NCBI GenBank assembly: GCA_965197905.1
Contig: CBDAOB010000005.1
Coordinates: forward strand, 32,001 to 96,000
Length of the DNA stretch: 64,000 bases
Direction: 5' to 3'
DNA from: Candidatus Latescibacterota bacterium
GTDB lineage: Bacteria > Latescibacterota > UBA2968 > UBA8231
Below the pieces are notes generated by a model that was given only the letters and a program-made list of their open reading frames with translations, was not told the origin of the DNA and did not search any database. This document shows, piece by piece, positions 15,450-49,066 of the stretch. The stretch's first letter is position 1. The number at the start of each line of letters is the position of its first letter. Position numbers and translations under genes: made by a program.

Positions 15450-15551
15450 GCTGATTCCACCCACTGAAGACCTCGTTCACAGATTCCGGTGAGACTCTCA
15501 CCCTCTTTCGGAGGGTTGGCGCTAGCCAGCCAGTGGAGGGAACAACAGTTC

Positions 15552-17533
15552 ATGAAATCACCCAAATCAGACGCTCAACAAACCGACGAATCGATACAGG
15601 ACGGACTGGCCCATTACCAGGCCGGACGACTGCAACAAGCGGAAACCATCTTCCAATCCATCTTGCAGGAACATCCCCAACATCCCGACGCCTTGCATCT
15701 GCTGGGAGTCCTCAAACATAGAGAAGGAGACCACGAAACCGCCGTCGGTCTGATCGAAGAGGCCATAAAATCGAACCCGACGGCACCGGCCTTTTTCAAC
15801 AACTGCGGTGAAGTCTATCGTGCATTGCAAGACTACGATTCGGCCATTGCCCGCTATGAGCAGGCCCTTGCCCTCAATCCGAAATACGCCGAGGCGTTCT
15901 ACAACCTGGGGATCACCCTTAACCAACTGGGCCGGCACGAAGAGGCTATCGAGCGCTATAAACAGGCCCTTGCCCTCAAGCCGGGCCATGGCAAGGCACA
16001 CAACAACCTGGGGAATGCGCTACGGAATCTGGGCCGTCAGGAAGATGCCCTTACCCACTATGGTCAGGCCCTTGCCATCCGGCCGAACTACGCCGAGGCG
16101 CACTACAACCTGGGGAATGCCCTCCAAGAGCTGGGCCGTCATGAAGAAGCGATCGCTTGTTACGAGCGCGCCGTTGCCATTGAGCCCGACTTCGCCGAGG
16201 CATACAACAACCTGGGAAACGCCCTCCATAAGATCGGACGGCATGACGAAGCGATTGTCCCCCTCGAACAAGCCGTTGCCCTCAAGCCGCATCTTGCCGA
16301 GGCGCACAGCAACCTGGGAAATGTCCTGCAGGAGCTGAGCCGGCACGACGAAGCCATTGCCAGTTACGAGCAGGCCCTCGATCTAAAGCCAGATTTCGCC
16401 GAGGCACATTACAATCTGGGAATTCCCTCCAGGACCTGGGCCGGCAGGAAGACGCCATCGCCAGTTACGAGCAGGCTCTTGTTCTCAAGCCTGACCACGC
16501 CGAGGCGCGAAGAAGTTTGACCCTGATCAAACCAAGTCCCGATCAAATTCCGCTGTTGGAAAAGCGTCTGACAGACCCGTCAACATCAGAGGAAGACGCG
16601 ATCCACCTGCATTTCGCGCTTGCCGATCTTTTCGACCAGGCCAATTCCTGCACCGATGCATTTGAACACGTGAAGAAAGCCAACGACCTGAAACGAAAAA
16701 CGATCACCTATGATGCGCGACAGCATTCTGTTTTTGTAGACCGAGTGATCAAGACCTATGCGACAAGCTTTTTCGAAACCAACACTGCGCGCGGGTCCGA
16801 TTCGGAACTGCCCGTATTCATCGTTGGCTTACCACGCTCCGGAACTACCCTCGTAGAACAGATTGTATCTAGCCATCCGCAGGTGTTTGGAGCGGGCGAG
16901 CTTGGATCTCTTATGGCCATTGAAGAAGGGATATCCAAAGAGATAGAAACATCGCGCCCTTACCCGGAGGGAATTTCGTCTTGCAAGGACTCAGTCGCAG
17001 CTGAGTTTTCGACCAGATATCTGCGTGAGCTGCGCGAGTACTCGCCGTCCGCAATCCGAATTACCGACAAGATGCCGAGCAATTTTCTCAGGATTGGTCT
17101 TATCAAAATCCTGTTCCCGAAGGCGCGCATCATTCATTGCAAACGCAATGCGCTCGATACCTGTACTTCTATCTTTCTGAATTATTTGGTAAAAGGTCAT
17201 GATTACTCCTTCGACCTAGAGGAGTTAGGGCAATATTATCTGGACTACGAGAGATTGATGAGACACTGGCGCGGCGTGGTCGCCGATGAAATATTCGAAG
17301 TGCAGTACGAAGAATTGGTTACGGATCAGGAGTCGGTTAGCCGGCAACTCATCGAACATGTCGGATTGGAGTGGGATGACACCTGCCTCGATTTTCACGA
17401 GAACACACGGGTGGTGAAGACGGCCAGCAATCTGCAGGTGCGCAAGCCGATGTACAAAAACTCGATCAACAGATGGCGGCGGTATGAGAAACAGCTGGCA
17501 CCCCTGGTAGCAATGCTCGATACCCACATCTGA
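15552..17533 (+). CDS. TPR-repeat sulfotransferase (Sulfotransfer_3-like), about 660 aa; frameshift at ~16418
   Basis: About nine 34-aa TPRs (AEAHYNLGNAL); FIVGLPRSGTTL, DKMP, TASNLQVRKP; adding one G to the G run in CTGGGAAT restores LGNSLQDLGRQ and joins ORF 16517-17533. Confidence 0.85.
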
Positions 17534-17589
17534 ACTACGCGTGTGCCTGCGGCCACGCTTCTTGCAGACATCATATCCCCTTGCCCTAA

Positions 17590-17623
17590 TTGACCGGTGT
17601 AAACATTTTGTTTATAATTACAC
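17590..17623 (+). promoter_or_regulatory. Sigma70 promoter with palindromic operator for higBA (probably leaderless)
   Basis: TTGACC (17590-95), 17 bp, TATAAT (17613-18); TAAACA-N3-TGTTTA and GTGTAA..TTACAC inverted repeats; ATG at 17627. Confidence 0.8.
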
Positions 17624-17626
17624 TTC

Positions 17627-17909
17627 ATGATTCGGTCGTTTGCCGACACCGAGACTGAGCGTTTCTACAATGTTGGAAAATCCCGTCGTTATCCGCCCTC
17701 CATCCAAGCAAGGGCCGCGATGCGGCTGACACAATTGAACGCCGCCACGCGTCTGGACGACTTGCGTTTGCCACCATCGAATCGATTGGAAGCCCTGAAA
17801 AGCGATCGCGTCGGTCAGTGGAGCATCCGTATTAACGACCAATGGCGGGTGTGTTTCCGCTTTGAGAGCGGTGACGCGTTCAATGTCGAAATCCGACTAC
17901 CACAGATAG
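17627..17909 (+). CDS. higB: HigB (RelE/ParE superfamily) toxin; reads through into higA as assembled
   Basis: MIRSFAD..LRLPPSNRLEALK..GQWSIRINDQWRVCF; the canonical DYH end followed by TAG (17907-09) lies out of frame. Confidence 0.85.
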
Positions 17910-17917
17910 GAGTCAGC

Positions 17918-18217
17918 ATGAACAAGGACGGCCTGCCCCCGATCCATCCCGGAGAATTTCTGCGTGAGATTCTGGAGGAGTTGGACATTTCTCAAGCTAA
18001 GTTCGCTCGCGCCATCGGCATTTCGCCAATGCGGGTGTCACACGTGGTGAACGGAGCGCGACCTGTGACGGCCGAATTAGCGCTCCTGTTTAGCAGGGCC
18101 TTCCATCATCAATCGCCGCAATACTGGCTCAATCTGCAAGCTGCGTACGACTTGAAAACCACCGAAACGGCCATAGCCAAACAGCTGAGAGCGGTCCCCG
18201 ATCTTTCGTCTGTTTGA
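17918..18217 (+). CDS. higA: HigA antitoxin (Xre-type HTH)
   Basis: PIHPGEFLREIL..YWLNLQAAYDL; own AGGAG RBS at 17908-12. Confidence 0.9.
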   Translation: MNKDGLPPIHPGEFLREILEELDISQAKFARAIGISPMRVSHVVNGARPVTAELALLFSRAFHHQSPQYWLNLQAAYDLKTTETAIAKQLRAVPDLSSV

Positions 18218-18545
18218 CCCGGTCGTTTCGCGAGCCGAGGTCATCGCAGTACCAAGCGCCCAACCATAAATACAAGCGCCGCCCGACCTCGACCTGCACG
18301 AGTGTCCAAAACCTCCTTGACCGACTCGTTGCAGAGGACGCCCGGACTGTTCACCGGTCTCGATCTCCTCAAATACGGACAAAACCACCAATTATGGATA
18401 CAACCATTACAGATCTACACAAATTGCCTGGAATCTGAAAACGACTCCGATTACCTTCCATTGATCGCCGGGCCGAAGCTGCACGCCGCTGCTCTGTATA
18501 CCATTATAGTACCTCCGGCGACGGAACCTTCCCGGTCCGGACTCG

Positions 18546-19622
18546 ATGCTGCCTACCGAATCTCACTTCGACTCTACCCATACGCCTGACCTACCTCCAC
18601 TTCTAGCCGAACTCGGCATCACCCTCGCCGTCACTACCTACCAGGCTGGCAAGGTGATTCTCATCAGCTCCGACGGCCAAGGGTTGCAGCATCTGCCGCG
18701 CACCTTCGACACCCCGATGGGCATGGCGGTCAAAGAGAACCAGATGGCGCTGGCGCTCAAGGACCGGATCGTGCTGCTGGCCAACGAACCGCGCCTGGCC
18801 GCGAGCTATCCAAACAAACCCAGCTACTACGATTCGCTGTGGGTCCCACGCTCGGTGCATTACTGCGGCGAGCTCAACGCCCACGACCTGGCCTTCGGTG
18901 AAGACGGCCTGGTGGGTGTCAACACCCTGTTCTCCTGTCTCTTTCGACTCGACGAGCAACACAGCTTCGTTCCGGTCTGGGAGCCGCCGTTTATCAGCGC
19001 CCTGGTCTCCGAGGACCGCTGCCATCTCAACGGCCTGGCGCTGGCGCCGGGAGAAGGCGAACAAGCTCTGGTGTCGGCATTGGGCACGAGCAACGAGCGC
19101 GAGGGTTGGCGCGAGAACAAGATGGAAGGGGGCGTGTTGATGAGCGTCCCGGAGGGCGAGACGGTGCTAAGCGGTCTGCCCATGCCCCACAGCCCCCGTT
19201 GGATCGGGGGCGAGCTCTATCTGCTGCTCTCCGCCCGCGGGGAGCTGGCAGTGGTGGATCTCGACGACGGCAGTTACGAGGTGATCCAGCGGGTTCCCGG
19301 ATTCGCACGAGGACTGGCCTTTCACGGCGACTATCTATTCGTCGGCGTGTCGCGTTTGCGGCCGGGCCGGATTTTCGGTGACGTGCCGCTGGCGGAGGGT
19401 GACACCAAGTGCGGCGTGGCGGTGGTGCATCGACCGAGCGGAGCGCTGATGGGCATGGTCGAATACACCTCCTCCTGCGAGGAGGTCTACGATGTGCAGG
19501 TGCTCGCCGGCATGCGCAGGCCGGGCATCCTCGGACTGGAAACCCCGACTCACCTGAGCTCGCTCTCGATTCCGCAAGAAACCTTCTGGATGGCGCCTGA
19601 TGCTGAGGAAGATGAGGGCTGA
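18546..19622 (+). CDS. TIGR03032/DUF4915 family protein (function unknown)
   Basis: TTYQAGK, HDL, VNTLFSCL, WEPPFIS, EDRCHLNGLA, MPHSPRW, PGFARGL, EEVYDVQV motifs. Confidence 0.9.
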   Translation: MLPTESHFDSTHTPDLPPLLAELGITLAVTTYQAGKVILISSDGQGLQHLPRTFDTPMGMAVKENQMALALKDRIVLLANEPRLAASYPNKPSYYDSLWVPRSVHYCGELNAHDLAFGEDGLVGVNTLFSCLFRLDEQHSFVPVWEPPFISALVSEDRCHLNGLALAPGEGEQALVSALGTSNEREGWRENKMEGGVLMSVPEGETVLSGLPMPHSPRWIGGELYLLLSARGELAVVDLDDGSYEVIQRVPGFARGLAFHGDYLFVGVSRLRPGRIFGDVPLAEGDTKCGVAVVHRPSGALMGMVEYTSSCEEVYDVQVLAGMRRPGILGLETPTHLSSLSIPQETFWMAPDAEEDEG

Positions 19623-20268: not shown

Positions 20269-20287
20269 TAGTGGACAGCTTGGAATC

Positions 20288-26504: not shown

Positions 26505-29500
26505 ATGACCACAGAAGCTCACGACGCAACTATAGCCCACTTGAGCGACCGGGCGCTGTATCGTCGCAGCGAAGAGATGCTCTTCGAGGCGGCGCGGCTC
26601 CACTGCAGCGGCCGGCGCTCCGGCCTGCGCAAGCGGGTGCGCCGCTACCTGAAGCCCTATCGGCGCGACCGGGTCTTTCTGACCTCGCTCGCCTCTTCGA
26701 TTGGGCGGTTGTTAGTCGTCGCCTTCCTGCTGGCGCAGCTGTGGGCCACCGAGGCGAACGCCCAGCCTTCCTTCAGCTCCTCCTCGCCGGCCAACGCCAC
26801 TCACGCCACCGCCCCCACCGGCAACATAAGCGCGACGTTTACCGAGGCGATCGCTGGCGGGACCGTCTCCAGCACAACGTTTGTAGTGCACGGAGGTTTT
26901 ATCGGCAAACACTCTACAGGCGGCACAGCCAGCACGCACCAGGATGCTACCTACACCGGGCAAGGCACGACGACCTTGACCTTTGATCCAGGGGAAAATC
27001 TTACTCCAGGTGAGCTGTTGAGCGTGTCGTTGACGACCGGGTTGCAAAACGGCAGCGCCCAGGCGTTGACGGCGGGCAAAGTATTCCAGTTCCGGGCGGC
27101 GGCGGGAGCGGGTCCGAGAGTTTTCGACAACACCTCCAACAACATCGATACTCCGACGAACGACACCCGCGAAGTGATGTTGGGCGATTTCGACGGCGAC
27201 GGCGATCTGGATGTTGTTGCGGCGAACTATGCTGTCGTGAATCGAGTGTATCTGGGCAACGGCAACGGCACTTTCGCCGTGGGCAGCAATATTGATACTC
27301 CGACCAACAACACGCGACACCTATCGACAGGCGATCTCGACGGCGATGGGGACCTTGACGTGGTCATCGCCAACAACAACCAGGTTAACAGGGTGTATCT
27401 GGGCAACGGCAATGGCACCTTCGCCGTCGGTAGCAACGTAGACACGCCGACCAATGCGACGCTCGAACTAATTCTGGGCGATCTCGACGCCGACGGGGAT
27501 CTGGATCTGGTCACCGGCAATAACAACCAGGTCAACCGAGTCTATCTCAGCAATGGCAACGGGACCTTCGCTACCGGAAACGACGTAGGTACGCCGGCAA
27601 ACGCTACGAGATCGGTCGAGCTGGGAGATGTGGATGCGGATGGGGATCTGGATCTGATCGTGGCCAACTATAATCAGACGAATCGCATTTACTCAGGAAA
27701 TGGCAATGGCACGTTCGCCGTGGGCACCAATGTTGACACGCCGACGAACCAAACCCAGACCGTGCGCTTGGGGGACCTGGATGGGGACGGCGATTTCGAT
27801 CTGGTCGCCGGCAATCGCTATCAGGTGAACCGGGTTTATCTGGGCAATGGCAATGGCACCTTTGCCTCTGGATCCAATATCGACACCCCGACGAATCAAA
27901 CCATGTCCGTCTCGCTGGGGGACCTGGATGGGGACGGTGATCTCGATTTGATCACCAGCAACAACACGCAGGTGAATAGGATGTATCTGGGTACCGGCAC
28001 CGGGACGTTTGCGTCGGGTACAGATGTCGACACACCGACCAATAATACCCGGGCGGTGCCCCTAGGGGATGTGGACGGGGACGGCGACCTGGATCTGGCG
28101 ACGGGCAATTCCACTCAGGTCAACCGGGTGTATCTGAACAACGGAGCGGTGTTTTTGTCGTCGTCGCCGACCGCCAACAACAAAAGCGTGACGACCACAT
28201 CCAACGTCAGCGCCACCTTCAACCAGTCGATGAATGCGGCGACGACCTCGACCTTCCTCGTCCACGGCAGCATGACGGGCAAGCGCGCCGGGTCGTATAG
28301 CGGTGCCAGCAGCACGACCCTGACCTTCGATCCGACCAGCGACTTCAAGTCTGGCGAGCGCGTGGACGTAACGCTGACGACGAGTCTGCAGAACACCGCC
28401 AGCGAAGCATTGCAAACAGCCCGGACATTTCAGTTTGTCGCGGCGGCCAGCGGGGGACCGGCGGTGTTCAGCAACGCGTCGCATGCCGTCGATACGCCAA
28501 CGAATGCTACGCATACCGTGTCGTTAGGGGATCTGGATGGTGACGGCGATCTGGATATGGTTACTGGAAACGATAATCAGGTAAACCGGGTGTATTCGGG
28601 CAACGGCAACGCCACCTTCGCCTCGGGTAGCGATGTCGACACACCGACGAACAGGACTTTTTCCGTGTCGTTAGGCGATCTCGACGGGGACGGCGATCTG
28701 GATTTGGCTACCGGCAATCGCAATCAAGTGAACCGAGTATATCTGGGCAATGGCAGTGGCACCTTCGCCACGGGCAACAATATAGATACCCCAACCAATG
28801 ATTCTACCGCCATATTGTTAGGGGATATGGATGGTGACGGCGACCTGGATGTCGTAACAGGTAATCGAAGTCAAGTAAATCGGATATATCTGGGCAATGG
28901 CAATGGTACTTTCGCTGCGGGCAACGATGTCGATACCCCGACCAACGTGTCCTATTCAGCGCAGTTGGGAGATGTAGATGGGGACGGCGACCTCGATCTG
29001 GTAACGGGCAATAATCCTCAAGTGAACCGAGTATATCTGGGCAATGGCAATGGCACCTTCGCCTCGGGCAACGATGTCGATACGCCAACCAATGCGACCA
29101 CTTTCGTTCAGCTAGGAGATTTGGATGGGGATGGCGATCTGGATTTGGTCGCAGGCAATAACGCTCAAGTAAACCGGATTTACTTGGGCAACGGCAACGG
29201 GACGTTTGCCTCAGGCAACGATGTCGATACCCCAACCAATATAACTTTCTCCATGGTATTGGGGGATATAGATGGGGACGGTGATCTGGATCTGGTCGCG
29301 GGCAATCAGAGTGGAGTGAACCGGATGTATCTGGGCAACGGCAACGGTACCTTCGCCTCGGGCAGCGATGTCGATACGCCGGCGAATCAGACCATATCCG
29401 TTTCATTGGGGGATGTCGATGTGGACGGCGATATAGATTTGGTTACGGGCAATAACGGTGCTGTGAACCGCGTCTATCTGAACAACAATACCAAGTTTTC

Positions 29501-32500
29501 TTCCTCTTCACCGGCGGTCAACGCCAACAATGCGGCGACCACTTCCAACGTGAGCCCTACCTTCACACAGTCGATGAATGCGGCAACGAGCTCGACCTTT
29601 GTGGTGCGGGGCGATATGACGGGCAAGCGCGCAGGTACTTACAGCGGGGCGAGCAGTACGACCCTGTCCTTCGATCCGACCAATGACTTCCGGCCGGGCG
29701 AGCTGGTGGAGGTCACGCTGAAGACCGGCTTGAAGAGCACCAGCGGAGATGCGATGCAACCTCCTCGGGTGTATCGGTTTTTCGGTGCGGCGACTGGCGG
29801 GCCGGCGGTGTTCAGCAATAAGACGCACGATGTCGACGCGCCGACGAACAGTACCCTTTCCCTGCCGTTAGGAGATGTTGACGGGGACGGCGATCTCGAT
29901 CTAGTCGCGGGCAATTCCACTCAAGTGAACCGGGTGTACTTAGGCAACGGCAATGGCACTTTCGCCGCTGGAAGCAATGTCGATACGCCGACGAATTCAC
30001 CCAGTCCGTGTCGTTCGGCGATCTGGATGGCGATGGCGATCTGGATAGTGTCGTGGGCAATTACACTCAAGTGAACCGCTTGTACTTAGGGAACGGAAAC
30101 GGCACCTTTGCCTCTGGAAGCAATGTCGATACCCCGACGAACAACACCTATTCAGGCTTGTTGGGGGATGTGGATGGGGACAGCGATCTGGATCTGGTGA
30201 CGGGCAATGGCAACCAGGTGAATCGGGTGTACTTAGGGAACGGAAACGGCACATTTGCGACCGGCAACAACATCGCTACTCCGACGAATGACACCCGATC
30301 CATGTCTCTAGGGGACTTGGATGGCGATGGCGATCTGGATGTGGTCACCGGTAACAATACTCAAGTGAACCGGGTGTATCTGGGCAATGGCAACGGTACG
30401 TTTGCAACGGGCACCAATGTCGCTACGCCGACGAATAATACCCAGGAAATTCGTCTAGGGGATTTGGACGGGGACGGCGATCTGGATCTGGTCACCGGCA
30501 ATTCCAGTCAGGTGAATCGGGTGTATCTGGGCAATGGCAACGGCACCTTCGCGGCGGGAAACAACGTCGCCACGCCGACAGATCAGACCTTTTCCGTGCC
30601 GTTAGCTGATGTTGATGGGGACGGCGATCTGGATCTGGTCACCGGCAATTCGGGTGCCGTGAACCGGCTCTATCTGGGCAATGGCAACGGCACCTTCGCC
30701 GCGGGTACCAATCTCGATACGCCGACGAATCAGACCCGGTTCGTATCGTTGGGAGATCTGGATGGGGACGGCGATCTGGATATAGCCACAGGCAATCTTG
30801 GCGAGGTTAACCGGGCGTATCTAAATAACAACACCTCCTTCTCCTTCTCCTCCCCCACGGCGAACAACAAAAGTGTGACGCCCACCTCCAACGTCAGCGC
30901 TACCTTCAACAAGGCGATGAATGCCGCCAGCTCCTCGACCTTCCTCGTCCACGGCAGCATGAGCGGCAAACGCGCGGGTACCTACAGCGGGGCGAGCAGT
31001 TCAACATTGACCTTCGACCCGACTAGCGACTTCAAATCCGGCGAGTTGATAGACGTCTCGCTTACCACCGGACTCAAAGCCACGACCGGCGATGCAGTGC
31101 AGCCACCCCGGGTGTTCCAGTTTCGTGCGGCGGCGACGGCAGGGCCGGTGGTATTTAGTCATGTCTCTAATGATGTGGACACTCCGACAAATACCACTCT
31201 TGCTGTCTCGTTAGGTGATATGGACGGTGACGGCGATCTCGATCTCGTTACCGGCAACGTTAGCCAGGCAAACCGGGCCTACCTGAGCAATGGCAATGGA
31301 ACCTTCGCCTCGGGAGCCGACGTGGCCACGCCGACGCATCAGACCCGGGCCGTGCCGTTGGGTGATCTTGATGGAGATGGCGATCTGGATCTGGTTACGG
31401 GAAACTACGGCCAAGTGAACCGGGTATATTTGAGCAACGGCAATGGGTCCTTCGCTTCAGGCAACGATGTGTCCACGCCGACGCATCAGACCCAGTCCGT
31501 GTCGTTGGGTGATGTGGACGGGGATGGCGATATAGATCTCGTCATGGGCAACCGGAATGTCGTAAATCGGGTCTACCTGGGCAGCGGCAGTGGTTCGTTC
31601 TCCTCCGGGACCGATGTGGACACACCGACGGATAACACCGCTAGTGTATCATTGGGTGATTTGGATGGGGATGGCGATCTGGATCTGGTCACAGGTAATC
31701 TTGGTGTCGTGAACCGGGTGTATCTGGGTAAAGCAACGGGATCTTCGCAACGGGAAACAATGTGGATACACCGACTCATCAGACCCGATATGTGTCGTTA
31801 GGTGATTTGGATGCAGATGGGGATCTGGACCTTGTCACAGGCAACAATGGTCAGGCGAACCGTCGATACCTGGGCAATGGCAACGGTACGTTTGCGTCCG
31901 GCAGCGATGTGGCCACGCCCGCGAATGGCACTTTGTCCATTGCGTTAGGGGATTTTGACGGGGATGGCGATCTGGATCTGGCTGCGGGCAATTCGGGGGT
32001 AAACCGGGTGTATTTGGGTGCTGGCAACGGTACGTTCGCATCCGGAAGCGATGTTGACACGCCGGCAAATACCACCCGGGGTATCGCGCTGGGCGATCTG
32101 GACGGAGACCTCGATCTGGATATCCTTGCAGGTAATGACAATACGGTGAATCGCTTTTACCTCAATTCAGGCAACAAAGACGGCTCCCTGACCGCCAGCG
32201 GCACCCTCGACGAGAGCAGCGCCATCGCCCTGCTTGCCGGAGCCGACACCCAGGCCGAAGCGATCGACCTGTTCGACTTCAAGCTCACCGACGGTGGCGG
32301 AGGTGATGGCTTGGCGCTGGCGGTTTCACAGATAGTTGTCAACACCTCGGGAACCGGTCCCTTCTCCCAGGTCACCTGGCTGCTCAACGGCCCCGACGCC
32401 AGCAATGTCACCGGCACCTACAATGCCGGCACGAACAAGATCACATTCACCGGCCTCTCGATTTCCATCGCCGACGGCGCCAGCGAAACCTACACAGTGC

Positions 32501-34821
32501 GCGGTCACTACAACAACACCAGCGGTCTGGTGAACGAAAAGACCTTTTCGCTATCGGTGGACGGGGACACCGATCTGACTACAAGCAACACCGGCACCAG
32601 CATGGTGCTCAGCAGCGCGGCGGTGAGCAATGCCGCCGCAGCCAAGGTTTCAGCGGCGCCGTTGCCGACGAACAACACCGGGGTGCGTTTGTCCGAGAAC
32701 GGCACGGCCTTGCTTTCCACGAGTGCGCTCTCCTTCGCGGATGGTCTCAGCACAAACGCTCAGATCGTCTACACCGTCCAGGTCGTGCCAACAGCGGGCC
32801 GGCTGAGTAAGAGCGGATCGGTTCTTGGTGTGGGCAGCACCTTTGCGCAAGACGATATCGACAACAGCAGGATCAGCTATATGCACGACGGGTCTGAGCT
32901 GTTCAGTGACAGCTTTACGTTCACAGTAACGGGCTCCCTGGGCCAGGCCACCGCCAACACCGTCTTCCCATTTGAGATCGATCCCGTGAACGACGCCCCA
33001 CAGCTAGATGTGTTGCGCGAGGTTCAGGTGGACGAAGGGGGAAGTGTCGTTATCAGTAACGGGTACTTGCGGGTGTTGGACGGGGACTCTCATGCCAGTA
33101 AGCTGAATTTCTCGGTGCTTGAAGGTCCGTTTTATGGTCGCGTCGACCGCAGCAGCTTTTCACAGGCCGACATTGACGAATCACGAGTACGCTACGTGCA
33201 CGACGGATCTGAAAGCCGACGGGACAGTTTGCGTTTCAGTGTCGCTGATGCCAGCGGCGCCCAGTTTGTCAGCACCTGGCTGCGTTTTGCGATTCGGGCG
33301 CTCAACGACGGCCCCATCATCCCGACGATTGAAAATCCCAGCGTAAACGAAGGAGAGCTTCTCGTACTGGACCTGGCGGCTACCGACCCGGAAGGCGCCG
33401 CGATCCAGATGACGGTGACCGGACTTCCCACTGGCGCAACGCTCGACGGCACCATGCTCAAGTGGCTGCCCCTCTATGACCAGGCCGGCACCTATCCGTT
33501 CGCAGCGATTTACGACGACGGTCAAGGCGGGATCAGTCGACTCCGAATCGATATCCAGGTGGGCGAAGCTCCCGTGCCGGTGCTGATGCCCGAACCGGCC
33601 CTGCTGGATTTCGGTGACGTGCCGGCGGGAGAGACCGCGGACAAGACGTTTGCGCTGGTCAATCAGACGCAGGTTGCGCTGGAGCTGGGCCCCTTTTCGA
33701 GCACCTCCGCCAACCTGAGTGTGTTGAGTCCGGCCTTTCCCGTTGGGCTCGACCCGGCAAAGAGGGTGGACATCGCCGTCCGCTTTGCTGCGACCAACGA
33801 CCGCGCCGACCTGCAGCAAGCACAACTGCTCAGCTCGACGAGACTGGGGCCCGTTGAAGTACCGGTCATAGGACGCAGTGTCTGGCGCAGACTGGTGGCA
33901 GACTACACCGAAATCACCTTTCTTCCCGCTGTAATCGGCGACACCCGTTGGAAACATCTGACCTTGAGCAACCCGGGAAACCTGCCGCTAGAAGTCGCTG
34001 CGCAGATTTCGAGCGACAGCCCTTTTGGCATCGAACCCGCCGCCATCACTTTACCCGGTGGTGAAAAGGCGATCATGCGGGTTCGCTTTGTGCCAGTGAT
34101 AGAAGAATCGGTGGAGGCATTATTGGCGTTGACGAGCGAGCTGGGACAAATGGACGTCCATCTACGTGGTCAGGGCCGTGAACGCGAAGAAGGACGGGTT
34201 ACCATCGACTTCAACCTGGCCAATGGGAATCAACAACAGAGTCTCGTTGGCGATGCTATACCCGGTTCCGTATACGTGCTTCAGCTTCACGCCAAGGGAG
34301 CGCCACAGGCTTCGGGATGGAGTGTCCGTGTCGACTACGACTCGGACGCTGTGTCTTATGTTGTAGGCAGCTTCGCCCCCGGCTCGTTTCTCAGCCGCTT
34401 GACACCGCTGGAGCGTGTTGAGCTAGGTTACGTGGAAGTCGGTGGTGATGCCCTGGGTCGAGAGAGTCCAGAATCGGGAAGTGGCATACTGGGCACGCTC
34501 TCCTTCCAAGTCGAAGACGGTTTCTCGGGCGCGACCGAGCTGGCGGTAAGCCGTGTAGCATGGCGTCGAGAAGGTTGGATTGGGCCGGACCGGGACCTGG
34601 TTTATGCGCCGGCCAACATCACTTCAGCGCCGGTGATTTTCTTGAGTGCCGGAGACTTCAATGAAGACGGCAGCGTCGACATCGACGATTTTTTTCTGTT
34701 CGCCGAGCAGTTTGATCGGAGCGTGCCCCCCGCCGAGCCCCGCTTCGATCTGGATGACGACGGTCGCATCGGCCAGGTCGATTTCTTTCTCTTCGCTGAC
34801 CTGGTTGTCCAAGGGTTGTAA
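26505..34821 (+). CDS. Giant surface protein 2 (about 2772 aa) with four 7-bladed FG-GAP propellers; split by two 1-bp deletions (~29997, ~31729)
   Basis: ORFs 26505-30074, 30008-31801 and 31762-34821 join in repeat register to give exactly 4x7 blades; same leader and C-terminal modules as the paralogs. Confidence 0.85.
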
Positions 34822-46710: not shown

Positions 46711-46900
46711 GGTGTTTCAAGCAGGTCTCAGGTAGTTTCTTCAGCGCAAACCCTCGCATGAGCCTCCTGCTGACCCACCATTGGGAACGTCCGCCGAGTT
46801 TGTGAGGGCGATCACTTCGTATTTTCCGTCACATTGCTATATTGAGCCATCACTCGCTCCTATTTTCTTAAGGAGCATTTTCCATTCTAGGGAGGAAGAT

Positions 46901-48910
46901 ATGGAACGGTCCGGGTACAGCAGGATTTTGCCTTGTCTCGCAGTTGCGATTTTTATGGCTCTCGGTGGAGCCGGCACGGTCACCGCCGTAGAAACACCAG
47001 AGGTCGAACCAGTGGAGCTCACCGTCGCCGCCTCGGGAGCCAAGGTGTCCTTCTCCATGTTTGGCACCGATCTCCGATTGTTCACGGCTATCCGCATCGT
47101 TTCTGACACCGATGATGATACCGATGGTATCAGGGTTGCCATGGGAAGGGCCCGGGGTGAACGCCGCAATGCGTCGATTCGCACCACTGGTGCGACACCC
47201 GGCTCGTATTCTGTGGAGCTTGTGGATATGGAAGGTGAGGTCGTCACCCTCGATCTCGCAGTGATCGTCGAGGGTTTCGAAGCTCCATCAGTACCCGACG
47301 TCAACAGGCCGCACATCAACATTCCGATCGACGGTGGGCGCGAGTCCTTCTCCATGCAGGGCCCGGATGTAGGATCGTTCACGGCGATTCGAGTTGTGTC
47401 CGACGGCGACGGAGACACGGATGGCATCGTCATCCGTATGGGTCGGGCAAGGGGTCAGCGCCGAAACGCGTCCATCCGTACCAACGATGCCGAGCCGGGC
47501 GAATATTCGGTTGAACTCGTCCACGGGCAAGGTGGGCCGACCCAACTAGGGATGACATTGCTCGTCTTCGAGCTTGCAGCTCCGCGTGTACGACCGGAAC
47601 GAATCGAACTTGCGCTCGATGGCCAGCAGGTGGATTTCGAATTGAGAGGCCCCGGTCTCAGTCTTTTTGAGGAGATTCACCTGCTAGACGATGAGGGTGG
47701 CGACAATACGGAAGGAATGGCCGTTGGGATGTCACCAAGAGCAGCTGCAGACAGGCGCGGCGCCTGGGCGAGGGCCGATGACGGAGCTTCTCCCGGTCTC
47801 TATCGCGTCGAACTGCTCGACGGAGACGGTGAGGTCTACGAGCTGGACCTGGAGATAGCGGTTGAAGGGGAGCCGCCGCAGGATGAAGGGGACTCTGACG
47901 TTGTCGCTGAGGATGACGATCGATCGTTTGGTGGAGGGGGCGGCGGTAGCTTTGATGACGACGTGGACCAGATGGTCGTCGCGAAAGCGTTCAACGTCGA
48001 AATCAACGGTGAGTTCATACCCGTAGTGAGTTATTCCGGTGGGGATATTACAGGTGAGAAAGCTGAAGCTAGCTCTGGCAGCAGCCAGCACAACGAATCC
48101 ACCATGGGTCACAACTACATCACCAACCTGACGTTGGAGTCTTTCTTTACTGCGGACAGTCACATGATTCAGGATCTGGTGATGGGATGGATCCAGGAGT
48201 CCGGTGGCCCCGTTGATGTTGCAATCACCGAACTGGCCAAAGACAAGTCCGTCGTGAAGACCTACGTCTATTCGGATTGTATTCCCGTTTCCTACCAGCC
48301 GCCTAGGGTGGCGGCCAACGCTAGCGAACTGTTGAAGCACCAATTGACCCTGAAGCCGGCTCGGTTAGAGGTATCCAGCGCCGAACCAAACCCAGAAGAG
48401 TATTTTGCGCCCGAGGCAAGGGACCTGCTGTACTCATTCCTCGAAGCGCTTGTGCCCAGTGCGGAGGCTGCACAAACGGAATCAGACCAGATGATCTTCT
48501 CGAAGTACTTCGAACTGGAGGTGGTAGGCATATATCAAAGCGTCCCGGGAGCCGTGAGCGTCTTTCCGGGGACTGTGTATTGGTCAAGCGAGGAAGCGAC
48601 CAGGGGGGATAAGCCAGATTGGCGCGAGTACACCTGGTCGTTCGATCGTTTTGAAGACTGGACTATCGAAGTCCAGCAAGGTCCCGGAATGATTAATCTG
48701 CAGAAGTATGCGGACGATGCTCTCAAAGAGGGAGCTCAATCACGAACGTTTTCTGTGCGTTTTCTGGCGCGGGACAAGTCAACGGTGCTTGGAAGTATGC
48801 ATGCACTCGGCACGCCGGTCGAGGTTATGGAGGCCGGTGATCCCGATTCGCAAGTGAAGCGGATCCAATACACCATAGAGGTTGAGAATCTTACCTTTGG
48901 GGACGATTGA
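46901..48910 (+). CDS. Exported protein (669 aa): signal peptide, three ~90-aa Ig-like repeats, two tandem phage tail-tube (T4 gp19/Afp1-like) domains
   Basis: GGAGG RBS; signal ending GTVTA; repeats ending PGxYxVEL; FNVEING..SGG..E..G..Y.TNLTL..W..V.I..L..D..V..Y.Y.DC.P.SY..P..A follows the gp19-family pattern (by eye). Confidence 0.65.
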   Translation: MERSGYSRILPCLAVAIFMALGGAGTVTAVETPEVEPVELTVAASGAKVSFSMFGTDLRLFTAIRIVSDTDDDTDGIRVAMGRARGERRNASIRTTGATPGSYSVELVDMEGEVVTLDLAVIVEGFEAPSVPDVNRPHINIPIDGGRESFSMQGPDVGSFTAIRVVSDGDGDTDGIVIRMGRARGQRRNASIRTNDAEPGEYSVELVHGQGGPTQLGMTLLVFELAAPRVRPERIELALDGQQVDFELRGPGLSLFEEIHLLDDEGGDNTEGMAVGMSPRAAADRRGAWARADDGASPGLYRVELLDGDGEVYELDLEIAVEGEPPQDEGDSDVVAEDDDRSFGGGGGGSFDDDVDQMVVAKAFNVEINGEFIPVVSYSGGDITGEKAEASSGSSQHNESTMGHNYITNLTLESFFTADSHMIQDLVMGWIQESGGPVDVAITELAKDKSVVKTYVYSDCIPVSYQPPRVAANASELLKHQLTLKPARLEVSSAEPNPEEYFAPEARDLLYSFLEALVPSAEAAQTESDQMIFSKYFELEVVGIYQSVPGAVSVFPGTVYWSSEEATRGDKPDWREYTWSFDRFEDWTIEVQQGPGMINLQKYADDALKEGAQSRTFSVRFLARDKSTVLGSMHALGTPVEVMEAGDPDSQVKRIQYTIEVENLTFGDD

Positions 48911-49066
48911 TGATATCACTCGTCCGCGTCCCCCGCGCTGCACGGCCATGAGGTCTTGTTCGGCGGCGCCCCGTTCATCATATTATCATCGCTTGCCATG
49001 TGAGGAGCATCCGTGCTCCTCATATTCATTTTTGATTCTGTCCCCGCTATCCCAAGGAGGTGAACC

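Follow-up and report, generated by a model that had tools for sequence, protein, structure and literature searches.

Gene and domain architecture

Within a window of 64,000 nucleotides (nt) from the genome of a Candidatus Latescibacterota bacterium (contig CBDAOB010000005.1, positions 32,001 to 96,000, forward strand), the plus-strand open reading frame (ORF) at window positions 46901 to 48910 forms one open frame of 669 amino acids (aa). It encodes a putatively exported protein, hereafter called the 669-aa protein, in which three immunoglobulin (Ig)-like repeats are fused to two tandem domains of the tail-tube fold (T1, of type A, and T2, of type B). The features of the gene are listed below in window coordinates.

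46891 to 46895 (+): ribosome-binding site GGAGG, 5 nt ahead of the ATG, read from the sequence
46901 to 46987 (+): predicted Sec/signal peptidase I (SPase I)-type signal peptide, residues 1 to 29, with predicted cleavage between VTA and V (hydropathy and similar homologue N termini)
47000 to 47278 (+): Ig-fold repeat 1, residues 34 to 126, with a conserved Arg-rich hairpin (1row_B, Z score of 8.6, root mean square deviation [rmsd] of 2.8, 86 aligned)
47300 to 47578 (+): Ig-fold repeat 2, residues 134 to 226 (C-terminal domain of 4unm_A, Z score of 8.2, rmsd of 2.4, 86 aligned)
47585 to 47872 (+): Ig-fold repeat 3, residues 229 to 324, missing in frame from natural variants (297-nt skip; homologue P0003 has two repeats)
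47873 to 47959 (+): acidic, Gly-rich flexible linker, residues 325 to 353 (predicted local distance difference test [pLDDT] value of <50; length and sequence vary)
47960 to 48385 (+): tube domain of type A (T1), residues 354 to 495, with a full-length hairpin loop at about residues 381 to 404 (PF06841, family profile, and 6j0b_a with a Z score of 12.2)
48386 to 48469 (+): interdomain linker with a predicted helix at residues 504 to 515 (AlphaFold model)
48470 to 48910 (+): tube domain of type B (T2), residues 524 to 669, and stop codon, with a full-length hairpin at about residues 557 to 580 (family profile and structure match)
48998 to 49025 (+): stem-loop of 12 pairs with a T-rich tail, a likely intrinsic terminator 3' of the gene (consensus scan)

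The sole strongly hydrophobic stretch of the protein is its N terminus (19-residue hydropathy up to 2.09), followed by the VTA/V site; homologues with a complete N terminus have similar cleavage sites (e.g., between VAA and QD). A basic n-region, a hydrophobic h-region, and an AxA-type site are present (judged by pattern and hydropathy only), and the 669-aa protein is thus presumably exported by a Sec/SPase I-type route. Compared with the copy in another genome of the same genus (G002), the signal peptide carries three synonymous and no nonsynonymous differences. The three repeats are mutually 56%, 44%, and 36% identical, and the two tube domains are 25% identical over 112 columns; none of these scores was reached in 2,000 shuffles. 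Frame, hydropathy, and shuffles therefore bear out the architecture described in a first-pass annotation made from the sequence alone (i.e., ribosome-binding site, signal peptide, three similar repeats, linker, and two domains). The positions that it gave for the two domains (47972 and 48491) are the Met codons of their DQM motifs, and both domains contain DQMxxxKxFxxE and LA(K/R)DKSxV. Internal starts at these methionines were considered and ruled out: the Met of domain 1 varies among homologues (DQK, DKK, and DTK) and is therefore no ancestral start codon. Three terminator-like sites were found, versus 2.0 expected in shuffles, the site at 48998 to 49025 having the longest stem; the promoter scan returned no plus-strand promoter site.

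The contigs of sequencing run X1 (perhaps the source sample) tile the ORF with no differences and no gaps, and contigs of a separate study (X6) span the junction of repeats, linker, and tube domains, again with no gaps. In-frame skips of 297 and 42 nt, with which approximately one repeat and part of the linker are gone, occur in two runs from a single sample (X5 and X6). A lone extra G (+1) at position 47935, in the linker, occurs in a single X5 contig with a depth of 2.3. The gapless contigs and in-frame skips indicate that the fusion is real and that the number of repeats is variable.

Fold of the tube domains and repeats

Domain 1 exceeds the Pfam cutoff for PF06841 (gp19; 32.7 versus 28.2 bits), and the family profile built for type A (T1) matches Pvc1 and Afp1 (E value of 3e-9), in line with its earlier assignment to the T4 gp19/Afp tube type. 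Domain 2 alone had no match in NCBIfam or PHROGs; the family profile for type B (T2) matches T4 gp19 (E value of 1.8e-4), and the A and B profiles align with a probability of 98.3% (hhalign). Profiles were required for these assignments, as phmmer searches of PDB with the tube region gave E values of only 0.05 to 0.09 (Afp1 and 9qgl). The score for TIGR02241 was 30.7, under the cutoff of 62.4, and the 669-aa protein had no match to the CIS1 or CIS5 families.

The protein was folded with AlphaFold2 on a 27-row alignment (two others, A8 and A10, had free B tubes placed on domain A and were not taken for folding); the mean pLDDT was 74.3 and the predicted template modeling score (pTM) was 0.45 (a single-sequence run gave a pLDDT of 34.5). 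When the full-length model was compared with 48,161 solved chains, the top four matches covered both tube domains, and all were tandem-domain proteins of the phage tube family: 8xan_B (Z score of 17.6; rmsd of 4.2; 270 aligned), P74-26 8ed0_A (Z score of 17.2; rmsd of 4.3; 276 aligned), T5 7qg9_I (Z score of 15.0), and T5 pb6 5ngj_A (Z score of 14.2), the double-domain matches spanning 248 to 276 residues. Single tubes ranked after them (Pvc1 6j0b_a, Z score of 12.2; Hcp5 7yw0, Z score of 11.1). In the model, domain 2 also takes the tube fold, so the structure comparison proposed in the first-pass annotation gives this fold for each domain. The trimer of tandem domains that it had suggested is also the best structural analogy, given these top four matches.

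The repeats are predicted to be all-beta sandwiches of approximately 90 aa, consisting of strands only (pLDDT mostly 80 to 90). They match Ig-type sandwiches with Z scores of 8.2 to 9.3, and Ig-type proteins fill the Foldseek lists, as expected from their earlier description as Ig-like. No named Ig, Big, or TIG family was assigned to them by Pfam (the NCBIfam model GxPGS_dom reached merely an E value of 0.095), and the ESM Atlas had no match of ≥0.9. Among 4,311 candidates (proteins of 337 to 2,000 aa), all 14 matches to the repeat were tube fusions. Across 37 repeat copies, the best-conserved elements are a Gly/Arg-rich hairpin and a PG-x-Y motif. Arms of adhesins and surface layer (S-layer) proteins (FdeC 4e9l, Sap 8s80, and the MSP-domain protein 1row) are likewise all-beta sandwich repeats, but Z scores of 8 to 9 reflect a common fold and say nothing on function.

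Relation to known tubes

The arrangement of the two tube domains in the predicted model is that of the siphophage tubes, i.e., T5 pb6 (5ngj), P74-26 (8ed0), and the major tail protein of SH-Ab15497 (8xan). For pb6, trimeric rings, an origin by duplication and fusion, an Ig domain, and polymerization without a tape measure into tubes of several micrometers are described; deletions in its long loops abolish this polymerization (PMC5717097). The P74-26 tube protein is likewise described as forming trimeric rings and as polymerizing by itself in vitro into long tubes, with a requirement for its loops (PMC10034513). However, sequence identity between the siphophage tubes and the 669-aa protein is only 6 to 8%, which indicates that the fusion is convergent and that two distinct paralogues from extracellular contractile injection systems (eCISs) were joined. 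Phage tubes are virion parts without an export signal, whereas the 669-aa protein has its Ig domains at the N terminus, in three copies and with a family-specific sequence. No phage tail module (i.e., tape measure, Dit, and Tal) was seen among the 24 flanking ORFs scanned, and the closest relatives are found in eCIS operons. By analogy, the 669-aa protein would work like a pb6-type subunit, yet it lies outside that family. Type VI secretion system (T6SS) protein Hcp and the gp27/VgrG hub belong to the same superfamily of ring-forming beta-barrel domains, and the hub is also a trimer of doubled domains (PMC5717097), but neither the 669-aa protein nor its source genome (G000) has a match to such a family.

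On these analogies, we propose that the 669-aa protein forms trimers that close into pseudo-hexameric rings and stack into a noncontractile tube outside the cytoplasm, a reading to which we assign a probability of about 0.5.

A sheath-B-A eCIS as the probable donor

Pattern scans yielded 13 genome loci and at least 4 metagenome loci. One of them (L012, from a planctomycetotal metagenome-assembled genome) is an eCIS in which Pvc16, a sheath, the B and A tubes, another sheath, one more gp19 tube (its third), and eCIS_core are encoded in this order, with CIS_tube-LysM, gp25, and Baseplate_J farther along. Two others (L025 and L026) encode a sheath C terminus, B, and A in the same order. Donor sheath matches were confined to these 3 of 20 loci, the remaining loci being orphans. 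Among the loci found, L025 and L026 have the free tubes that are closest to the 669-aa protein: domain A shares 55% identity with the A tube of the L026 eCIS, and domain B shares 45% identity with the B tubes of both loci. Even the words at the N termini of the free tube genes survive inside the fusion, and both hairpins are as long as in the donor tubes.

These comparisons place eCIS inner tubes (Pvc1 6j0b, Afp1 6rao, and Alg1; PF06841 and TIGR02241), with the same fold, hairpin, and N-terminal words, as apparent direct ancestors of A and B, and on sequence evidence A and B derive from adjacent tube genes of a sheath-B-A eCIS operon. The earlier proposal of a captured pair of tube genes thus gains a donor operon type. 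The direction from eCIS to export follows from operon context, without a firm root, and is therefore stated as probable. The eCIS tubes are single-domain, signal-less proteins encoded beside sheath, Pvc16, gp25, and Baseplate_J genes, in contrast to the fused, signal-bearing, Ig-decorated, and orphaned 669-aa protein. As a separate observation, the sheath C termini of L012 (9037 to 9363) and L026 (2 to 328) are 92% identical while their tube pairs fall in different lineages, which suggests replacement of the tube pair or much faster divergence of the tubes.

Orphan status in the source genome

The source genome (91.16% complete; five contigs) contains one match to PF06841, which is the ORF at 46901 to 48910, and a six-frame search with our own A, B, and repeat profiles returned this ORF only at E values of <0.1. 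The first-pass annotation had noted no sheath or baseplate genes in the window and called for a search of the genome. None lies in the window, and none was found in the genome: sheath (PF04984 and PF17482), Baseplate_J, gp25, and Phage_GPD gave zero matches in G000, with working positive controls. Hcp (PF05638) had no match in any of the four genomes of the phylum that carry the gene (G000, G002, G003, and G042), the control being positive in Escherichia coli; for the families searched there, G002 (one contig), G003, and G042 had no sheath, baseplate, or hub match. Pvc16/DUF4255 also gave no match in the four genomes, with a control that was equally silent, and a tblastn search with the Pvc16 protein of L012 was empty. 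Searches of G000 (tblastn) with the donor sheath, Pvc16, and chaperone-like proteins returned nothing. No phage families were found among the 24 flanking ORFs (a weak NCTSP_N score within an FG-GAP protein was far under the cutoff), and two scans of viral contigs (46 and 152 pattern matches; a weak test based on short patterns) confirmed no relative.

These searches bear on whether the gene belongs to a contractile system (eCIS, T6SS, or prophage tail), the remaining genes being distant or missing from the assembly. In favor of this reading, the genome is 91% complete in five contigs, and sheath and baseplate matches occur on other contigs in 3 of 15 genomes carrying an orphan copy. Against it, besides the empty searches, Ig arms on the tube surface would be expected to clash with a sheath, and eCIS operons are described as comprising 15 to 28 genes, with assembly in the cytoplasm and release by lysis (PMC8213781, PMC12961389, and PMC8894135). 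We therefore regard membership in a contractile system as highly improbable.

A family of exported A+B fusions

The 669-aa protein belongs to a broad family of A+B tube fusions, predicted to be exported, that formed more than once. Three pooled searches, one of which contributed its best 120 of 157 matches, gave 189 proteins; 94 contain both A and B and 95 a single type, a proportion to be read knowing that tandem queries favor tandem matches. A signal-like N terminus was scored in 76 of the 94 fused proteins (69 Sec-like and 7 of the twin-arginine translocation [Tat] type) versus 13 of the 95 single-type ones (6 being B with a Tat signal), by a script of our own that examines just the sequence ahead of the first tube domain and misses obvious signals in P0045, P0063, P0126, and P0132. 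Several of the 18 fused proteins scored without a signal look N-terminally cut.

Three main topologies occur among the 94 fusions: the order is B-A in 51 and A-B in 16, B sits inside A in 21, and 6 are arranged otherwise. Exactly one A and one B are present in 88. In all 21 nested cases, the pieces of A are complementary halves, split near model position 70. The 1:1 ratio across three topologies fits a side-by-side placement of A and B. In 75 of 77 fused A domains, the hairpin differs from full length by no more than 3 residues; of the 87 fused B domains, 70 have a full-length hairpin, 13 a longer one, and 4 a cut one.

Quick trees built for A and for B concur in showing two main lineages, in each of which eCIS tubes are nested among exported fusions (omitted were near-duplicates, fragments of <105 aa, P0038, P0057, P0034, and P0027 and, for B, also P0046 and P0062). 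An approximately unbiased (AU) test with 18 chosen fused and 4 other rows rejected monophyly of the fused B domains (P = 8e-5); a single origin of the fusions is thereby rejected, and capture occurred at least twice.

Six orphan loci encode signal-B-A fusions (two in Hydrogenedentota, two of Tat type in Anaerolineales, one in Planctomycetaceae, and one in Verrucomicrobiota). The remaining ones comprise an RHS-linked form, partial or mosaic forms, a weak match (L024), and two operons (L027, 2985 to 3979, and L028, 4058 to 5233) in which B with a Tat signal is followed by a signal-less A with no sheath nearby. This order is expected if A exits bound to B, and the two operons are candidates for Tat co-export of a tube heterodimer. 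Among the 15 genomes with an orphan copy, for 4 of which completeness figures exist, no sheath-C match was obtained in 12; the other 3 match sheath and baseplate families on different contigs.

The partners of the tube domains vary. Many members consist of a signal and the two domains only (approximately 300 to 390 aa), and most lack Ig arms; others are fused to a PD40 beta-propeller (P0025 and P0066), to RHS (L013, 8300 to 10441), or to collagen repeats, which precede the B-A pair in P0068, and L022 (4175 to 10444) is likewise fused. Collagen requires a trimerizing domain, a point in favor of the trimeric ring proposed above. Alternatively, the end product might be a closed ring acting as a trimerization hub, comparable to that of gp27/VgrG or to one ring of pb6, which gathers passenger domains (Ig arms in the 669-aa protein) for avidity; the bulky passengers (PD40, collagen, and RHS) and the shortened B hairpin of four repeat-bearing homologues speak for it. 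The hub is nevertheless rather doubtful, since 75 of 77 A domains and 83 of 87 B domains, including those of the 669-aa protein, retain the hairpins, many members have no passenger to cluster, and a lone P74-26 trimer is described as unseen and thought unstable (PMC10034513).

The repeated, independent capture from eCISs could also point to an envelope decoy or cargo cage that protects the cell by binding incoming eCIS or phage tail parts or by trapping lumen-loaded effectors. A patchy pattern of gain and loss suits a conflict-related gene, 12 of the 15 carrier genomes have no sheath match of their own, and cargo proteins are described inside eCIS tube lumens (PMC8894135). The loci that we read by ORF inspection, however, show no defense-island or immunity context, and incoming tubes are preassembled, leaving little for free subunits to poison; a protective role is thus unlikely.

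Several members stand apart. L021 (14 to 13393) and L023 (32 to 13384) encode mosaic proteins of approximately 4,450 aa; that of L021 contains five Hcp stretches, three gp19 stretches, an OB piece of Phage_base_V, and DUF1559 and FG-GAP fragments. The genomes of both loci had no sheath-C or Baseplate_J match. Many single tubes of 141 to 154 aa lie on contigs of approximately 1 kb (the P0019 cluster and P0139 to P0199), and these contigs might represent transcripts, assembled from a B-A operon with high expression. P0038 (1,112 aa, signal-bearing) resembles A weakly over several stretches and does not match PF06841; its relationship may be distant or spurious. In the ESM Atlas, the tandem homologue P0036 led to two clusters of approximately 345 to 350 aa with PF06841 (93 and 111 members; score of 0.94), a lead only. 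Database labels of family members are limited to "phage tail protein," "phage tail-like protein," and "hypothetical protein."

A proposed exported, sheathless tube

The steps that would lead to an exported tube can be graded. The loci show an eCIS subtype with two neighboring tube genes in the order sheath-B-A, and loci and trees show that this pair was copied from its operon, joined in one chain, and provided with an export signal more than once, the direction being the probable one. The chain would then cross the inner membrane by Sec, lose its signal, and fold into three Ig domains and a side-by-side A/B double tube domain, as predicted. Three chains would close a pseudo-hexameric ring as in T5 pb6 and the P74-26 tube protein, and the retained hairpins would plug rings together into a noncontractile tube that lacks a sheath, a baseplate, and a tape measure and bears nine Ig arms on the outer face of each ring. 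Least certain is the role of such a tube, which might be a periplasmic or surface scaffold or an adhesive filament whose Arg-rich repeat hairpins bind an acidic polymer (e.g., a polysaccharide).

Several points weigh against this model. At a pTM of only 0.45, the model fixes the positions of the domains relative to one another poorly, and it may reflect a pb6 arrangement already learned by AlphaFold. The high acidity of the mature protein (isoelectric point of 4.3) may hinder stacking, and the B hairpin is largely lost in P0009, P0010, P0011, and P0022, which may therefore not stack. A route across the outer membrane was not found: the FlgD-type C-terminal tail of the neighboring proteins is absent from the 669-aa protein, and beside the lone secretin gene, no type II secretion operon was evident by eye. 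The gene is also rare, being carried by 4 of 168 genomes of the phylum (its own included), and was not found in G001, of the same genus (89% complete). While the G002 copy is intact (84% identical, in a shared neighborhood), frameshifts and deletions disrupt those of G003 and G042, which lie amid unrelated genes; the C termini of P0004, P0007, P0008, and P0015 are cut or shifted, by decay or assembly error.

The broken copies in two of three relatives raise the question of a nonassembling relic, in which the tube domains are monomeric beta-sandwich spacers or the whole is a decaying, functionless product of domain shuffling. Fragmentary fusions (P0027, P0051, L020, and L022), the mosaic giants of L021 and L023, and a G+C content at third codon positions of 0.62, versus 0.68 to 0.80 in five other genes of the window, would suit it. 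The ratio of nonsynonymous to synonymous substitution rates (dN/dS) relative to G002 is nevertheless low in each domain (repeats, 0.17, 0.25, and 0.28; A, 0.33; B, 0.19), as estimated from one pair with uneven dS (0.09 to 1.26), full-length frames are retained in homologues down to approximately 35% identity, and a 1:1 ratio of A to B with intact hairpins over three topologies would be odd for a monomer. We consider a relic quite unlikely, and stacking of exported rings into a sheathless tube remains the reading that we prefer.

Extended to the family, we tentatively suggest an undescribed class of envelope nanotubes, i.e., obligate A+B heterodimers repeatedly captured from one eCIS subtype and exported to form hollow, sheathless filaments with swappable passengers. 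As part of the same tentative proposal, fused chains would be exported by Sec, or A would be carried out on Tat-exported B, and the class would extend to at least Planctomycetota, Verrucomicrobiota, Hydrogenedentota, Chloroflexota, and the lineage studied here. As a corollary, the tube of the donor eCIS would be heteromeric (A3B3) and three-fold, whereas the AlgoCIS inner tube consists of one protein. Known bacterial gp19-type tubes are cytoplasmic parts of contractile machines that leave by lysis; if the proposal is true, a phage tail fold has been newly used in the cell envelope, by a signal-bearing, sheathless, doubled subunit that arose several times. We found no description of exported orphan tube fusions in the open-access literature (most subscription papers and supplements were beyond the search). 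A Tat-exported contractile system is said to occur in Bradymonas-like bacteria; we found no such report. Assembly of a tail-tube polymer after export and a two-subunit tube in one eCIS subtype can both be tested with one recombinant protein, and a secretable, self-assembling nanotube with surface arms would be of engineering interest.

Neighboring genes

The first-pass annotation had suggested that the protein might cooperate with adjacent giant proteins and had asked whether homologues keep both fusion and neighborhood. The fusion is kept in homologues; the giant-protein neighborhood is kept only in G002 (one of three relatives with the gene), and neither the leader nor the C-terminal domains of the giant proteins were found in any of the other 19 loci searched. 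With adjacency limited to G002 among 20 loci, we gave it no weight, and a partnership with the giant FG-GAP/dockerin proteins is unsupported.

The giant genes themselves lie at 20271 to 46710 (+) and encode four tandem FG-GAP/Big_5/cadherin-like/ASH proteins, the second gene (26505 to 34821) being divided over three ORFs. The four proteins share a strongly conserved, Arg-rich leader of approximately 85 aa before a hydrophobic segment, and this leader was found nowhere else in the genome. In G002, the giant gene lying upstream of the copy is broken in its 3' end by an ORF that we take to be transposase-like (L010, 13144 to 14535). Directly upstream of the giant cluster, positions 15489 to 19622 (+) carry genes for a TPR protein, a sulfotransferase, and a DUF4915 protein; within this region, a 196-aa frame at 17627 to 18217 (+) combines a HigB-like toxin domain with HTH_3 and represents a fused or read-through toxin-antitoxin pair.

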